Source: Candidatus Bathyarchaeia archaeon | Lineage (GTDB): Archaea > Thermoproteota > Bathyarchaeia > Bathyarchaeales > Bathycorpusculaceae | Length of the DNA stretch: 64,000 bases | NCBI GenBank assembly: GCA_049516875.1 | Contig: JBEKSS010000002.1 | Coordinates: 1 to 64,000 of the forward strand | Direction: 5' to 3' | Part shown: in pieces, positions 53,389 through 59,107 of the stretch | Layout: every line of letters starts with the position of its first letter | Position numbering within the stretch: position 1 is the first letter of the stretch | Translations under genes and position numbers: made by a program | Notes under the pieces: model-generated | Told to the model about the DNA's origin: nothing | What the model saw: only the letters and a program-made list of their open reading frames with translations | Databases searched by the model: none

Positions 53389-53450
53389 GTTTTGACACTC
53401 AAAGAAATCACGGATTGAGTACTCAAACACAAGGGCTCGAAACCCAACAT
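53389..53450. repeat. 62-bp double-palindrome repeat, copy 1
   Basis: GTTTTGACACTCAAAGAAATCACGGATTGAGTACTCAAACACAAGGGCTCGAAACCCAACAT, matching copy 2 at 58 of 62 nt. Confidence 0.9.
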
Positions 53451-53491
53451 TAAACCCCACGAGAAGTATGTTGACGCGCCATAATCATGGG

Positions 53492-54412
53492 CTAATCAAC
53501 CGCACCCAGAATCAGCGCCAGAAGCGCCATCCGCACGACTATGCCGTTCCTGACCTGCTGGAAATAACGAGCATAAGGCGTGTCATCAACCTCAGTCGCA
53601 ATCTCATCAACCCTCGGAAGCGGATGAAGAATAATCAAATCCTTCTTAGCCTCGCTCAGACTCTGCAAGTCCACCCTGTAAGAACCCTTAACCTTCGCGT
53701 ACTCCGCAGGATCAGGAAAACGCTCCTTCTGAATCCTCGTCACGTACAAAACATCCACCAAAGGAACAATCTTTTCTAGACTCGTCTTCTCAGTGACGGG
53801 AATCCGCTCCTTAATCGTCTGCAACACCTCCCGCCGCATCCTCAAAGTCTCCGGCGAAACCAAGAACAACTCCACATCGTACAAGGAAAGCGCGTAGGCA
53901 AGCGAATGCACCGTCCTCCCGTACCGCAAGTCACCCGCAAACGCAATCTTCAACCCGTCAACCTTACCCCTCTCCTTAACCATCGTGTACAAATCCAGAA
54001 GCGCCTGCGTAGGATGCTCCTCCGCCCCGCTACCACCGTTAAGGATAGGCACCTTGGAAAACTCTGCAGCAAGCCTCGCCGCCCCCTCCAAAGGATGCCG
54101 CAAAGCTATCACATCGGCATAATTCTCCACCGTCCTCACCGTGTCAGCAAGGTTCTCACCCTTCCTCACCGAAGCAATCTCCGCCTCCGCAAAACCGATT
54201 GTTGAACCGCCCAGCCTCTGCATCGCAGACTCGAAACTCAGCCGAGTGCGCGTACTCGCCTCGTAGAACAAAGTCGCAAGAATCTTTCCCCTCAACATCT
54301 GCGAACCCTTCAAAGCCAACGGCTCCATGGTTTTTGCGGTCTTGAAAATGTAATTGATCTCTTCACGGGAGAAGTCCTTAATCGAAATAATGTCTCTGCC
54401 CTTAAACTCCAA
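53492..54412 (-). CDS. pyrB: aspartate carbamoyltransferase catalytic subunit
   Basis: [28 protein letters not shown] and HPLPR motifs. Confidence 0.97.
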
Positions 54413-54546
54413 ACTCCCACCCACAACCACTCTACAAAACTACTAGATAACCCTTGTCAACAACGCAAAACCGCGCGGCCAGGGCAAGGGTTAAAGTCTT
54501 TTATTCGTGTTCCGATCATAAGCCTTCTCTCAGAGGGAAATCTGGC

Positions 54547-55011
54547 TTGAGCGAAACAGAGCTGCGGGTTTCCAAAATCAGAGACGGCACGGTAATCGAT
54601 CACATCACCGGCGGCCACGCCCTAGACGTTGCCAAAATCCTGGGAATAACGGGCCGCGAGAAAGGACCCATAACCATAGCCATCAACGTTCCAAGCAAAC
54701 GGTTCAGAACAAAGGACATCCTCAAAATCGAGGGCAGAGAACTCAACCCTCAGGAAGTGCACAAAATCGCCCTCATAGCGCCACACGCGACCATCAACAT
54801 CGTCCGCAACTACAAGGTGATAAAAAAACAAGAAGTCAAGCTGCCGAAGACCATAGAGAACATCATCAAGTGCGCGAACCCCGCTTGCATAAGCAACAGC
54901 AACGAGCCTGTTAAACCCAAATTCTACGTTGAATCCGAGGATCCCCTGTTGCTGAAGTGTCATTACTGCGGCAACATCATCGAGAAAAAGGATTTACTCC
55001 AACAGTTCTAG
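54547..55011 (+). CDS. pyrI: aspartate carbamoyltransferase regulatory subunit
   Basis: GTVIDHI, KDILKIE, CANPACIS and CHYC motifs. Confidence 0.96.
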   Translation: MSETELRVSKIRDGTVIDHITGGHALDVAKILGITGREKGPITIAINVPSKRFRTKDILKIEGRELNPQEVHKIALIAPHATINIVRNYKVIKKQEVKLPKTIENIIKCANPACISNSNEPVKPKFYVESEDPLLLKCHYCGNIIEKKDLLQQF

Positions 55012-55133
55012 CCTCCAACGAGAATCCAACTCGACGAAACGTTTATATCGTAAGATAGCATATTGTATAAGTGGATAGGTCTGGAAACAGACATATTGTA
55101 TCCGTGGAGAACACAAATACAGATGGTGAAAAC

Positions 55134-56353: not shown

Positions 56354-56391
56354 ACCCACAACCAAAAAACAACATCGCACAAACAGCAGAA

Positions 56392-56469
56392 TGGTGGGGC
56401 TGCCCGGATTTGAACCGGGGTCACGAACGCCCGAGGCTCATAGCCTAGACCAAACTAGCCGACAGCCCC
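56392..56469 (-). tRNA. tRNA-Pro(CGG)
   Basis: GGGGCTG acceptor stem, anticodon CGG, GGTTCAAATCC and encoded CCA. Confidence 0.93.
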
Positions 56470-56578
56470 AAACCCTTCACCCATTCCTATTTCCAAAACC
56501 ACAAAATAAGCCTATCCCAACACCTTTAAACCCCACACACCCAAAATAGTACACCCCCACCACCACAGAGGCCAAACC

Positions 56579-58771
56579 TTGTCCGCCAGCCACCGCACCC
56601 ACGGAATCAAAATCCTCAAAGCCATAGGCTCACCCCTAAGACTGCAAATCCTGAACCTCCTTTTCGACAAAGGCTCCCTCAGCTACACGGAACTCATGAG
56701 CAACTTGAAAATGAACCCAAGCAGAGACGCAGGAAGATTCGCCTACCACCTCAAATTCCTCCTCAAAGCAGACCTCATCGAAGCCATCGTCGACCAAAAA
56801 AAATACGGCCTAACCGACCTCGGCAAAATGGTCATCGACGTCGCCGACAGAATAGACAAAAAAGCCTACAAAACAAAAAACACACTCATCCGCGCCAGTA
56901 GATCAGCCATAGAAGAATTCGACGCCAACAAAATCGCAAACGCACTAATAAAAGAAGCCAAAATGCCCCCCGAACAAGCACAAAAAATAGCCAAAGAAGC
57001 CGAAACCCAACTCCTCAAATCCAAAACCAAATACCTAACCACCCCACTCGTGAGAGAACTCGTAAACGCCATCCTCATCGAAAAAGGCCTCGAAGAATAC
57101 CGAAACAAACTCACACGCCTCGGAATACCCGTCCACGACGTCACCAACCTCCTACACACACAGCAACAACCAACAAGCCCGCTGGAAGCAGCAGGACAAA
57201 CAGTCTTCAAAGAATACACACTCCTGAACACGTTGCCAAGAGACATCGCAGACGCCCACCTCTCAGGCGCCCTACACATCAACAACCTCAGCACATGGAT
57301 ACTCAAACCCACAGAAACCGTACACGACATCAGATTCTTCCTACAAAACGGCCTAAACCTAGAAACAATCAACCCCACCCAAACCAACCAACCCCCACCC
57401 CACAACCTGGACACAGCCCTAACAACACTCTTCAACGTCCTCCTCCACTCACAAAAAGAAACAGAAACAACCCAAACACTCGAATACTTCAACACCCTCC
57501 TCGGCCCATACACAAAAAACCAGGAACCAGCAAAAACAAAAGAAGCACTGCACCAGTTCATAACAAACCTAAGCCAACACACAGACACCGCCATAAGCCT
57601 AGAACTCACGACACCAGGCTTTTTAGCCGAAAAAACCGCCATCGCACCAGACGGCAAACAAGCCGGCAAGTACGCGGACTACACGGAAGAAACCCAGCAG
57701 CTAGCATCACTGCTCCTGGACACATTCACCGAAGAAAGCGCTCAAAAACCGTTGGTCAACCCCAAACTCATCATCAAAATACGCCCAGAAACACTCAAAG
57801 ACGAAACAGCAAAAGCCACACTCCTCAAAGCCCACGCACTTGTAGCACACAACGGCACACCATACTTCGCCAGCTTAACAGAGCATAAACAAACAGTCCA
57901 CACCCCTTCAGGGTTCAAACTGGACGCCGAAGCAGACGACGACTGGGAAATCGACACTCTCCGCACCGGACTCCTGGGCACTGTAACAGTAAACGTGCCA
58001 CGTGTAGCCTACGAATCTGGAAACGACAAGACAAAGTTCCTCGAAACGCTCAAGGAAAGACTTGAAATGGCAAACCGCGCCCTGGAAATCAAACACCAAG
58101 CCCTAAGACAACACGGCAAGAACCTGCTCCCATTCCTCATGCAGAACACCGACGGCGACCAGTACTTCAGACTCGAAAAAAGCATACACACGATAAACCT
58201 GGCAGGACTGACAGAAGCCGCAGAAGCCTTCACGGGCAAGAGCATCGAAGACGAGAAAACCGTAGCCTTCGTCCAAGAAACCGCACAGAACATCACAACG
58301 TTCATAAACAAAATCGGAAGAAAACGCGGAAAACACCTGTACGCAGCAACGATGCCAAACCCCGAAGCCTCAGCAAGACTGGCACAACTGGACATCGAAA
58401 GATACGGAATCGCAAGAGTCCACTTCTCAGGCACAAGAGACAAACCCTACTACTCCACAACAGACACAGTCACACTCAAGAACGGCAACATCCCCCAACA
58501 ACCCCAAACGACGAGGAGCAGAACAAGCCAAACACGCACGGGCGGAAACCTAACGCTGATCGAACTCGACGAGACACAACACGAACCAGAACAGCTTCTT
58601 TCGGTAACTAGGCAACTCGTAGAAAACCGCAACATGGAATTCTTCACCTACAACCGCAAAACAACCTACTGCACAAACTGCAAAAAAACTTGGCCCGGCC
58701 AGGCACACAAGTGCCCCCAATGCAACGCCGTGAGCACACTCACGTACTACGACAGATCCGACCAAACCTAG
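56579..58771 (+). CDS. wHTH + ATP-cone + catalytically inactive class III ribonucleotide reductase (NrdD-like) fusion
   Basis: N-terminal wHTH (SPLRLQIL..SYTELM..GRFAYHL), ATP-cone (FDANKI..LVRELV) and NrdD motifs (PRDIADAHLSG.LHI, RTG.LG.VTVN.PR, RLA.LD, PYY, CxxC..CPxC). No RxxGY motif. Confidence 0.85.
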   Translation: MSASHRTHGIKILKAIGSPLRLQILNLLFDKGSLSYTELMSNLKMNPSRDAGRFAYHLKFLLKADLIEAIVDQKKYGLTDLGKMVIDVADRIDKKAYKTKNTLIRASRSAIEEFDANKIANALIKEAKMPPEQAQKIAKEAETQLLKSKTKYLTTPLVRELVNAILIEKGLEEYRNKLTRLGIPVHDVTNLLHTQQQPTSPLEAAGQTVFKEYTLLNTLPRDIADAHLSGALHINNLSTWILKPTETVHDIRFFLQNGLNLETINPTQTNQPPPHNLDTALTTLFNVLLHSQKETETTQTLEYFNTLLGPYTKNQEPAKTKEALHQFITNLSQHTDTAISLELTTPGFLAEKTAIAPDGKQAGKYADYTEETQQLASLLLDTFTEESAQKPLVNPKLIIKIRPETLKDETAKATLLKAHALVAHNGTPYFASLTEHKQTVHTPSGFKLDAEADDDWEIDTLRTGLLGTVTVNVPRVAYESGNDKTKFLETLKERLEMANRALEIKHQALRQHGKNLLPFLMQNTDGDQYFRLEKSIHTINLAGLTEAAEAFTGKSIEDEKTVAFVQETAQNITTFINKIGRKRGKHLYAATMPNPEASARLAQLDIERYGIARVHFSGTRDKPYYSTTDTVTLKNGNIPQQPQTTRSRTSQTRTGGNLTLIELDETQHEPEQLLSVTRQLVENRNMEFFTYNRKTTYCTNCKKTWPGQAHKCPQCNAVSTLTYYDRSDQT

Positions 58772-58805
58772 ATAGTAGTGTTCTGCATTGTAACCTTCTG
58801 CTGGT

Positions 58806-59107
58806 ATGTTGGCTTGTGAGCCCTTTTGTTTGAGTGCTCAATCCGTGATTTCTTTGAGACTCAAAACATTGTTGAAGCATGTTGGTTTGAAGCTTTTTTT
58901 ACTCAATTCTGCCTGGTTTTTGAGTGTCAAAAGTTTCGGCATGCTGAGTTTCTCATGTTAGAGTCGGAGGCCTTGCGTTTGAGTACTCGATGCGTGATTT
59001 TTTTGGGTGTCAAAAGTGGGTTTCGATGTTTGCTCGTGCGTGTTGCATGTTGGGTTTTAGGCTTCTGGCTTTGAGGTTCAATTCGTGGTTTCTTTGGGTG
59101 TTAAAGG
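58806..59107. repeat. tandem array of four degenerate 62-bp repeat units, inverted relative to copies 1-2
   Basis: Units at 58806-58867, 58879-58933, 58955-59016 and 59047-59107. Each starts ATGTT and ends with a TTTG(A/G)G..T(C/T)AAA-like motif. Confidence 0.85.

Follow-up and report, generated by a model that had tools for sequence, protein, structure and literature searches.

An intergenic repeat family that looks like a hotspot of chromosome reshuffling in a Bathyarchaeia archaeon from peat

REP/BIME sequences and REPINs (RAYT) are short, extragenic, palindromic, and multicopy, with a species-specific consensus. They occur singly or in small clusters, which in REP/BIME are alternating doublets, often lie after 3' ends, and are possible substrates for recombination. 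Rolling-circle elements of the IS91/ISCR and Helitron types, which move by one-ended transposition, have neither terminal inverted repeats (TIRs) nor target-site duplications (TSDs); one end is sharp and follows a short GC-rich hairpin-like stretch, the other is variable, and flanking DNA is co-copied. Prokaryotic MITEs, such as the Correia elements of Neisseria and the SM MITEs of Sulfolobus, are described in a review as small, non-coding, multicopy intergenic elements that may carry terminator-like sequence and add genome plasticity (PMC10969869). For the Thermococcales, it is reported that the Int of plasmid pTN3 drives chromosomal inversions and that a tyrosine recombinase mimics homologous recombination, with att/tRNA-like sequences or any homologous pair ≥104 bp long as substrates; the inversions are large and so frequent that alignment of close relatives is difficult (Cossu et al. 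2017, PMC5495485). Bacterial invertons and shufflons are segments found both ways round between inverted repeats. In the accounts that we drew on, known invertons are mostly promoter-sized or alter coding sequence and have an invertase nearby, and a limited literature search turned up no report of an archaeal inverton.

The repeat described here was noticed in a window of 64,000 nt (the whole stretch of DNA analyzed), in which the original prediction placed six copies, at 53389-53450, at 56292-56353, and in an array at 58806-59107. All six are real and correctly placed (Table 1). The two single 62-nt copies, both on the plus strand, are 94% identical, and the array has the opposite orientation. 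A 37-nt core occurs three times in the window at ≤3 mismatches, and none of 100 shuffles contained any match. Also as predicted, the copies start 41 nt past the 3' end of pyrB, 38 nt past that of tRNA-Pro, and 34 nt past that of the wHTH-ATP-cone-NrdD gene. Both predicted palindromes, including TTTGAG(A/T)CTCAAA, are present, although their centers are ~23.5 bp apart instead of the predicted ~22 bp (two helical turns). The copies are not a product of misassembly: contigs from four public runs (four studies; two of the runs represent a strain ~3% diverged) extend 30 to 40 nt into each window repeat from unique flanks. Because these contigs end inside the repeats, the order of the blocks in the window rests on the metagenome-assembled genome (MAG).

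Table 1. Features of the repeat region in the window (R1, sequence model of the repeat; D2, D4, and D8, sequence families)
Feature	Position	Strand	Basis and remarks
Outer extension of first copy	53323..53388	+	Partly common to 56229-56291; 53323-53350 vs 56229-56256 79% identical (family D8)
Single unit, CAACAT (inner) end towards pyrB	53389..53450	+	R1 76.7 bits; 41 nt from pyrB stop codon
Block P: pyrB(-), pyrI(+), unknown ORF, CxxCxxCC gene(-); repeats at both ends	53451..56228		Pfam
Outer extension of second copy	56229..56291	+	Family D8
Single unit, inner end towards tRNA-Pro	56292..56353	+	R1 74 bits; 38 nt from tRNA-Pro 3' end
Block TN: tRNA-Pro(-), wHTH-ATP-cone-NrdD gene(+), inside convergent (+...-) pair	56354..58805		One of 17 pairs
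Innermost near-consensus array unit	58806..58867	-	Inner end 34 nt after NrdD stop codon; R1 72 bits (58805-58869); I1/I2 89% complementary to + copies
Diverged 'B' unit, T7 run on + strand	58868..58933	-	A-B-A' composite
Linker and outer 'A' unit, T7 run on + strand	58934..59016	-	R1 64.6 bits at 58953-59016
Decayed fourth unit	59047..59107	-	R1 29.8 bits at 59045-59106; families D2, D4
Tract rich in G+T on + strand, past outer end of array	59108..59200		Sequence reading

The original prediction took dispersal as the sign of a REP or MITE, and a scan of the source genome (G000; a 2.43-Mb Bathyarchaeia MAG of a peat archaeon in 20 contigs, 97.5% complete) showed the family to be dispersed: 11 of the 20 contigs carry it, at 51 intergenic loci with ~75 units in all. 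The nhmmer search gave 75 matches, and the 70 units scoring ≥30 bits were grouped into the 51 loci. Model R1 matched 77 times in this genome and 17, 12, 2, and 1 times in four genomes of the same genus, while the composite array used as a blastn query found matches in 3 of 41 related genomes, the source genome included. As in REP/BIME, the many dispersed copies are extragenic: 47 of the 51 loci are free of called genes, and the four overlaps involve doubtful or marginal ORFs (crude gene calls). Units are 62 to 75 nt long and stand singly or in direct tandem arrays of two to four; the composite A-B-A' architecture recurs at ≥10 loci. The inner end (…CAACAT) is constant and sharp and the outer end variable. 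Genome-wide, sequence is shared beyond the units on the outer side only, where the outer 100 nt, read in the orientation of the element, are 70% A+C at 42 of 51 loci. Neither the set placement behind 3' ends nor the constant orientation relative to the transcript, both predicted from the window, holds genome-wide. At 30 of 51 loci, the gene next to the CAACAT end is directed towards the element (hand count; crude gene calls), and distances from element to gene run from 0 to >200 nt.

The main finding concerns the orientation of the copies relative to one another. Among 20 cases of neighboring loci ≤10 kb apart (mean under random placement, 9.3), 17 are convergent (+…−), 2 are (−−), 1 is (++), and none is (−…+); not one of 10,000 orientation shuffles yielded as many convergent pairs. 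A locus bridging contigs C17 and C9 (L080) makes an 18th pair. The pairs enclose 1.6 to 7.8 kb of mutually unrelated housekeeping genes, including those for EF-1α, TBP, HisRS, and NrdD, and the 76 enclosed ORFs have no family common across the segments. For the 16 pairs elsewhere in the genome, the 137 proteins encoded within or near them are likewise products of housekeeping genes, with no transposase and no integrase among them. This convergent pairing around housekeeping blocks, and its link to inversion, had been overlooked by the earlier reader.

Many copies are located at synteny breakpoints. Of 20 element loci compared with the related genomes G002 and G004, 12 lie at non-collinear junctions, 6 are collinear, and 2 could not be scored (hand count). 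Breakpoints coincide with each of the three repeat sites in the window: NrdD adjoins pyrB in the relatives with no repeat in between, and relative to the syntenic right flank, blocks P and TN are each inverted in place compared with both genomes. The EF-1α block is also inverted versus both, as is a block on contig C6 whose flanks are both collinear and which, in all three genomes, is bracketed by decayed elements. A further block, at 377 to 380.5 kb of contig C1, is inverted relative to its right flank versus all four of G001 to G004.

The same kind of change separates near-identical strains. Across 80 metagenome loci, element junctions with flanks ≥94% identical to G000 were collinear in 37 cases and rearranged in 9. 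At this level, the segment at 56.1 to 62.8 kb of C1 was inverted in three different contigs, the EF-1α block was inverted with both junctions seen, and the segment at 244.0 to 250.3 kb of C1 was inverted as well; that at 377.1 to 380.6 kb was inverted at 92% identity. Thus, four distinct inversions distinguish metagenome strains that are 92 to 99% identical. Copies in inverted orientation bound segments present both ways round, as in invertons, between species and between near-identical strains; every genome compared is a MAG or a set of metagenome contigs, and the two orientations always came from different assemblies, never from a single clonal population.

New copies can also insert into intergenic DNA. 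A site at 206160 of contig C2 is empty in all four relatives, and G000 has ~130 extra nt there that end at CAACAT. Comparison of the filled site with the four empty ones, whose flanks are only ~80% identical, gives at most an ambiguous 4- to 5-nt CACR match. Copies within G000 are kept alike, matching the family consensus, whereas orthologous units in G003 and G004 have decayed and are recognizable but strongly diverged (~60 to 65% alike by eye). Exact identical stretches between partner copies are 18 to 51 nt long (median, 30 nt). Some copies have held the same position since before the split from G003, which could mean selection for a function.

Dispersal over the 51 loci argues against the noncanonical origin or partition boxes that had been suggested and leaves the REP/BIME-like element as the nearest of the three readings originally offered. 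The repeat shares with REP/BIME and REPINs all of the general features listed above except the form of its clusters, but it is not a REP in the defined sense, because there is no Y1/RAYT gene and its palindromes lack hairpin covariation. The check for TnpA/RAYT proposed with the original prediction gave no match to the Y1/RAYT transposase (PF01797) in the 97.5% complete genome, and the control matched in 6 of 14 genomes. In addition, the units are longer and partners are kilobases apart and strictly convergent. The likeness to MITEs lies in size, copy number, intergenic position, and lack of coding capacity, as well as in the possible terminator-like sequence and added plasticity. MITEs in the strict sense were nevertheless rejected. 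The ends, GTTTTGA(C/G)… and …CAACAT, show no complementarity and thus form no TIRs; no autonomous IS with matching ends was found, there being no transposase in or beside the 17 pairs; and the anatomy is polar. The single filled-versus-empty comparison shows no clear TSD. A PATE derived from IS200/IS605 was also rejected: besides the missing Y1 gene, the ends of the sole TnpB gene in G000 are unrelated to the repeat, and no fixed sequence adjoins either end of the element. By analogy, rolling-circle elements may resemble the repeat in anatomy, given the absence of TIRs and of a clear TSD, the one sharp end after a GC-rich hairpin-like stretch, the variable far side, and the apparently co-copied flank, but no fixed target motif adjoins the constant end. 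A search for HUH Y2 proteins gave no match, and the control genomes were equally silent. The 27 ORFs beside elements at eight metagenome loci with little or no G000 homology next to the element include no transposase, and a search of viral contigs gave no match. As in the Thermococcales, inversions between short archaeal repeats are frequent; here a single dedicated family is involved, with far shorter exact identities and flips of mostly 1.6 to 7.8 kb, and the enzymes are candidates only. In contrast to known invertons, the segments are multigene and housekeeping, with no adjoining recombinase and no evident switch.

Several other functions could be imagined for the elements. If they were selected one-way transcription terminators or insulators, convergent pairs would seal blocks so that transcripts stay inside, and the rearrangements would be secondary. 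Oligo-T tracts terminate archaeal RNA polymerase. At 44 of 51 loci the outward strand carries a run of at least five T, whereas the inward strand does so at 3; among all genes, 35% are followed by a run of this kind ≤200 nt downstream. In the window, all three sites lie behind a 3' end and are oriented so that they would terminate its transcript, and some copies are positionally conserved across species, e.g., after TBP and upstream of EF-1α. This remains an improbable primary role: only 20 of the 34 ends of the 17 pairs have an inner gene directed towards the element (hand count), both elements of the pair on C7 are upstream of inward-pointing genes, sister species allow their copies to decay, and a T run alone would suffice, with 62 nt conserved at >90% copy identity unneeded. 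We consider it very unlikely that the elements are binding-site arrays for a dimeric wHTH regulator, such as the adjacent wHTH-NrdD fusion originally proposed, or centromere-like or origin boxes. The pair of dyad-symmetric motifs, wHTH genes close to several elements, and a local minimum of cumulative GC skew near 57 to 59 kb of the window are consistent with such roles, but the loci are scattered beside unrelated genes, skew near elements is general to all of them, and conservation spans the whole 62 nt without singling out the palindromes. Only 2 of 6 DUF7347-type and 2 of 11 HTH_45 paralogues lie ≤700 nt from an element, versus 4.9% of all genes, an unconvincing enrichment. Archaeal origins (ORB/mini-ORB) were rejected as a match on the dispersal and because what lies within the pairs is 1.6 to 7.8 kb of coding sequence in place of an AT-rich unwinding element. 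We give least credence to the units being small structured RNA genes or encoding a short repeated peptide. Single units do fold as a 12-bp bulged hairpin (z-scores, −1.1 to −2.2), and the outward strand holds an open frame starting at the ATG of ATGTTG. However, RNAalifold predicted no pairs over 48 units and thus no conserved RNA fold; the named helices, for which a covariation check had been proposed, showed none above shuffle and slide controls in these units; central helix pairs are broken in 24 and 26 of the 48; and an Rfam search at E ≤ 1 found no match. Changes fall in codon positions 1 and 2, with position 3 equally conserved, which counts against a peptide.

A more serious possibility, though still an unlikely one, is that the elements are the dedicated targets of a single recombinase, each made up of an asymmetric 12-nt spacer between the arms TTTGAGNCTCAA and TTGAGTACTCAAA, the convergent pairs being programmed invertible modules of a genome-wide shufflon or inverton rather than a selfish repeat. 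Inversions recur at pairs with very short exact identity, close direct pairs are rare (3 of 20), and a 1.2-kb deletion in G002 and G004 cuts the gene for 2-oxoacid dehydrogenase E2 exactly at the outer palindrome, the intact E2 gene of G000 carrying the look-alike CAGTTGAGGCTGAAAG at the deletion point. G000 has ten matches to tyrosine recombinases, with at least six intact genes, and an integrase that drives chromosomal inversions is known from Thermococcus (PMC5495485). Against this, none of the ten matches is next to an element, no recombinase gene was found beside any annotated element or co-distributed with the family, and a search for serine recombinases in G000 gave none. Inversion of a block of the EF-1α type carries the promoter along, so nothing obvious is switched. 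Furthermore, a recombinase site needs neither 62 conserved nt nor tandem arrays, roughly half of the aligned units carry an imperfect first palindrome (TTGACACTCAA; column pair 16/44 broken in 24 of 48), and the crossover point could not be placed.

The reading that we favor, with slightly better than even confidence, is that the six copies in the window are members of a dispersed repeat family that has expanded in this lineage, is non-coding and non-autonomous, mobile, homogenizing, and REP/MITE-like, and inverts intervening DNA through recombination between its copies. Among the points against it, 6 of the 18 loci that could be scored keep collinearity with relatives; similarity between partner copies barely exceeds that between non-partners (0.795 versus 0.780; 306 of 10,000 shuffles as high); neither homologous recombination, nor ordinary two-ended replicative transposition, nor gene orientation predicts the strict (+…−) polarity; the searches tied no enzyme to the element; and the long-kept position of some copies could reflect selection. 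Recombination between copies could proceed by host homologous recombination on these very short identities or, as we judge likelier, through a recombinase or nuclease that recognizes the element. This enzyme may be one of the tyrosine recombinases, with the dyad-symmetric motifs as its potential binding sites. Crossover would flip the enclosed block, and non-crossover repair would homogenize the copies; direct pairs flanking essential genes would not persist, since a crossover within such a pair would remove the genes. In the window, an ancestral NrdD→←pyrB junction may have been broken, with a repeat left at each of the three breakpoints, and the proximity to pyrB, tRNA-Pro, and NrdD would be incidental. 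The outward-strand oligo-T runs probably make the elements one-way terminators, a side effect that would render them tolerable near genes. With facing pairs around blocks that have flipped between close relatives, the repeat looks like a hotspot of chromosome reshuffling rather than a gene switch, a binding site for a neighboring protein, or an origin of replication.

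Both single copies described in the original prediction are present, on the (+) strand, and are 94% identical to each other; the tandem array proposed at 58806-59107 keeps its coordinates and its four units and is oriented opposite to both (+) copies. The neighboring genes, pyrB, tRNA-Pro, and the NrdD fusion, are all as stated, as are the gaps of 41, 38, and 34 nt from their 3′ ends to the copies. The centers of the two palindromes, which had been placed 22 bp apart, are actually separated by ~23.5 bp. Three occurrences of a 37-nt core were counted in the window, with no match in any of 100 shuffles, and an Rfam search of window positions 50000-62000 (E ≤ 1) returned two tRNAs and nothing else. 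The window also has a very strong strand skew between 52000 and 59000 (GC skew to -0.38, AT skew to +0.45), which spans genes of both strands and changes sign at ~58.8 kb, where the repeat array lies. For many elements, the interval from the inner side to the nearest gene end contains GCGCGC-type motifs (for example, at window positions 53470-53480 and, on other contigs of the same genome, at C6:86880 and C3:119040).

Repeat units and genes in the window and strain-level events relative to the same genome (R1, sequence model of the unit; C1, C3, and C4, other contigs)
Feature	Position	Strand	Remarks
Repeat copy	53389-53450	+	
pyrB	53492-54430	-	pyrI on opposite strand
Repeat copy	56292-56353	+	
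tRNA-Pro	56392-56469	-	
wHTH-ATP-cone-NrdD fusion	56579-58771	+	
Array unit 1	58806-58867	-	A-type, near-consensus; R1 72 bits
Array unit 2	58868-58933	-	diverged "B" type
Array unit 3	58934-59016	-	second A-type unit; R1 64.6 bits
Array unit 4	59047-59107	-	A-type, decayed; R1 29.8 bits
Coiled-coil gene	59145-60062	-	matches leucine-zipper and coiled-coil Pfam families; 21-nt-period tandem repeats at 59297-59641 (10 copies, 60-75% identical)
Inversion	C1 56.1-62.8 kb		three different contigs
Inversion, EF-1α block			both junctions in one contig
Inversion	C1 244.0-250.3 kb		two contigs; reference orientation retained in other contigs of 95-100% identity
In-place inversion	C1 377.1-380.6 kb		at 92% identity
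Junction	C4:157.4 kb to C3:212.7 kb		strain-level event
Indel (one)			strain-level event

A genome scan with the repeat model, the check named in the original prediction for separating a clustered from a dispersed family, found dispersal, with 51 loci on 11 of the 20 contigs. These loci derive from blastn and nhmmer searches of the host genome (G000; 2.43 Mb, with the window as positions 1-64000 of its contig C2), which gave 75 matches; the 70 units scoring 30 bits or more were merged into the 51 loci. R1 has 77 matches in G000 and, among the relatives of the same genus, 17 in G004, 12 in G002, 2 in G001, and 1 in G003; a composite blastn query found matches in 3 of 41 related genomes including G000, all three of the same genus. 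An exact 23-nt core was recovered from at least 135 stretches of metagenome contigs, of peat and sediment origin, and from none of the viral contigs searched. Searching with NrdD retrieved Bathyarchaeia MAGs as relatives.

Units follow the consensus GTTTTGA(C/G)NCTCAAAGAAATCACGGATTGAG(T/C)ACTCAAACACAAGGNCTC(N5)CCAACAT and are arranged as single units or as B-A′ (~115 nt), A-A′ (~150 nt), or A-B-A′ (~225 nt) composites whose internal junctions are identical. The element is polar. Its inner end is sharp, with a CAACAT-type motif closing the innermost unit at 43 of 51 loci and with unique sequence past this end; its outer end varies by module, and homology past the units was found on the outer side for eight locus pairs and on the inner side for none. 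In element orientation, A+C content is 70% in the outer 100 nt and 56% in the inner 100 nt, and the outer value exceeds 60% at 42 of the 51 loci, compared with 7% of intergenic regions; a weaker A+C skew is seen across ~1 kb of the genes to either side (average of 50 loci). The outward-reading strand carries a run of five or more T residues at 44 of 51 loci, and the inward-reading strand does so at 3. A 20- to 22-aa ORF (MSTKGKSASDQGSYATEVKS and variants) begins 6 to 9 nt beyond the outer boundary of three G000 elements (C7:71254, C4:67878, and C3:212645), and the C4 and C7 elements have 175 nt of outer flank in common at 86% identity. Variation in this short ORF is unlike that of coding sequence.

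Several roles for the unit itself can be set aside. For a conserved RNA, RNAalifold predicted no pairs on 48 units; single units fold modestly better than shuffles. A hairpin formed by the two palindromes, with a small 3′ hairpin, has covariation within that of controls; of its two central pairs, one is broken in 24 and the other in 26 of the 48 units. An outward reading frame opening at the ATG of ATGTTG has variation that is not codon-like. The suggestion that the units are binding sites for the neighboring wHTH protein is not supported, as enrichment of wHTH genes near elements is weak, and neither is the proposed tie to gene 3′ ends: by hand counts on crude gene calls, the gene on the inner side is directed toward the element at 30 of 51 loci and, for the pairs, at 20 of 34 ends.

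The arrangement of the loci is far from random. Among 20 neighboring loci less than 10 kb apart, 17 are convergent, with CAACAT ends facing the enclosed genes (+...-), and the other three comprise two (-,-) cases and one (+,+) case, with no (-...+) arrangement; 17 convergent pairs were reached in none of 10,000 orientation shuffles, and random placement yields half as many close neighbors. A metagenome contig (L080) joins the start of C17 to the start of C9 at 100% identity, turning two solo elements near these contig ends into an 18th convergent pair, ~5.1 kb apart; it is also a scaffold link between these two G000 contigs. The ends of G000 contigs do not terminate in elements. The same polarity holds for all close inverted pairs in three genomes (17/17 in G000, 3/3 in G004, and 2/2 in G002), and close (-...+) pairs were found in neither G004 nor G002. 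Enclosed segments measure 1.6 to 7.8 kb and are without transposase or integrase. They contain HisRS with a tRNA-splicing endonuclease and eIF-2B; an RPA-like protein; EF-1α alone; TBP, aRF1, and AOR; a proteasome subunit, FttA, and SepF; and, in further segments, ThyX, SAHH, PurA, Alba with a DEAD helicase, MDH, and NrdD. No gene family or common cargo gene is shared across the segments.

At many loci, the repeat lies at synteny breakpoints between species, and several of the blocks that it bounds are inverted. In G001, G002, and G004, as well as in three named MAGs, a convergent pyrB comes directly after tRNA-Pro and NrdD, with a spacer of 56 to 154 nt without repeat. Relative to the right flank (C, for which the reference is the coiled-coil gene plus the block near 69.4 kb), the order in G004 is P′, (tRNA-Pro-NrdD)′, X, C and that in G000 is P, tRNA-Pro-NrdD, C, where P comprises pyrB, pyrI, an ORF of unknown function, and a CxxCxxCC gene. 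These orders imply that P and tRNA-Pro-NrdD were each flipped in place. X, ~3.9 kb in G004, is missing from G000, and each of the three window junctions carries a repeat. The block order of the window rests on a MAG, and public contigs break within the repeats; contig joints such as 53450 to 58806 are expected from contigs of other repeat-flanked segments and do not indicate excision. To the left, block 51500-53143, which adjoins tRNA-Asn (51014-51090) and contains a PIN-domain gene, is 96% identical to contig C17 of G004, compared with 81 to 87% elsewhere, and is probably a recently acquired or exchanged island that integrated next to this tRNA gene. G004 also has a second copy of the 3′ third of NrdD (C14; L034:12643-13316; 72% identical) just past the coiled-coil gene.

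In a hand count from search tables, 12 of 20 element loci are at noncollinear junctions with respect to G002 or G004, 6 are collinear, and 2 are unscorable; every genome compared is a MAG or a set of metagenome contigs. At the C6 pair, a 3.2-kb block is inverted with respect to G002 and G004, with both flanks collinear and with decayed, likewise convergent units at its ends in these two genomes. Relative to the right flank, the C1 block at 377 to 380.5 kb is inverted versus all four relatives and the EF-1α block versus G002 and G004, which retain a decayed unit upstream of EF-1α. The C7 pair is fully collinear with G003, and its left site shows decayed orthologous units in that genome and in G004; the C14 pair is collinear, with the unit after TBP conserved. 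The 2-oxoacid dehydrogenase E2 gene has a 1.2-kb deletion in G002 and G004, with its edge exactly at the outer palindrome of an element: the gene is cut after ~88 codons, where the repeat unit starts (L036 and L037), and the intact G000 gene (C6; L025:1308-2423) has a look-alike of the unit's first palindrome at the cut point.

The element also inserts, and its copies are homogenized. All four relatives lack an insert at the intergenic site C2 206160, where G000 carries ~130 additional nt that end at CAACAT; comparison of the filled with the empty sites reveals no clear target duplication. Orthologous units of G000, G003, and G004 are mutually very different (roughly 60 to 65% alike by eye), whereas those of G000 fit the family consensus, orthologous sites included, which indicates that copies have been overwritten or replaced, as in concerted evolution.

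Blocks are inverted between strains as well. When 80 metagenome loci were compared with G000, element junctions with flanks at least 94% identical were collinear in 37 cases and rearranged in 9, some of these from overlapping loci. As far as seen, all close-strain inversions have elements at both ends, and the remaining differences are indels. Exact identity between partner copies is 18 to 51 nt (median, 30), and partners are marginally more alike than nonpartners; at the EF-1α inversion, variant positions conflict, so the crossover point is not resolvable. Assembly artifacts are unlikely since these identities are shorter than reads and the usual assembly word lengths and since several arrangements recur in independent assemblies. 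Occurrence of a block in both orientations was observed by comparing different assemblies and not inside a single population.

These observations may be explained if copies recombine with one another. A crossover between convergent copies would invert the enclosed block, non-crossover repair would homogenize the copies, and close direct pairs would be rare because recombination between direct copies would delete essential genes. Given the very short identities and the recurrence of events, an enzyme-promoted process is favored over plain homologous recombination, in which a recombinase or nuclease would act on the element. G000 has no match to Y1 transposases or serine recombinases, and a Y2_Tnp search was silent both there and in control genomes. 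Its single TnpB gene has ends unrelated to the repeat. Ten tyrosine recombinase matches were found, at least six of them intact and none adjoining an element, and there is no autonomous partner among 27 ORFs annotated beside elements in eight metagenome loci. In Thermococcus, an integrase was shown to be able to drive frequent inversions, acting on segments down to 104 bp (Cossu et al., PMC5495485), and Ngan et al. raise the idea that IS elements might move into breaks already present, leaving no target duplications (PMC11708052).

The strict polarity, together with the polar anatomy, could reflect one-ended copying from the CAACAT end, selection for outward-facing terminators, or a real orientation-dependent function. 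Convergent pairs might be functional, orientation-dependent boundary sites read by a dedicated protein, which we consider unlikely. One form would be genome-wide programmed inversion of housekeeping gene blocks; in the other, the sites would act as polar barriers, either anchoring small loops of the chromosome or sealing transcription units, with a logic like that of convergent CTCF sites or of Ter fork traps (enter, no exit). The (+...-) rule would then be a functional requirement and the rearrangements a by-product. Polarity in three species, the conservation of position of some pairs across species, and the strongly polar anatomy are compatible with such boundary sites. Among known systems, REP/BIME elements, MITEs, and IS elements are likewise repeat families that seed rearrangements, but the RAYT gene and the maintained hairpin that define REP/BIME elements are absent here, as are the terminal inverted repeats, clear target duplications, and autonomous partner of MITEs and IS elements. 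Invertons share the inverted repeats around a flippable segment, whereas here the segments are housekeeping blocks with no adjacent invertase. No description of this repeat family or of comparable archaeal invertons was found in full-text searches of the open literature.

Bathyarchaeia are abundant and mostly uncultured, and how their genomes change is very little understood. The repeat family is a concrete, sequence-defined agent of chromosome reshuffling: it marks synteny breaks, and the blocks that it bounds flip between strains that are 92 to 99% identical. It is unlike REPs, MITEs, and IS elements in having one constant end, no terminal inverted repeats, no clear target duplications, and pairs that enclose essential genes in strictly convergent orientation. 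In this clade it will confound both MAG scaffolding and annotation based on synteny, and its convergent pairs offer ready loci at which the rate of inversion could be measured in peat metagenomes. Should the polarity prove functional, this would be the first archaeal case of orientation-dependent boundary elements.
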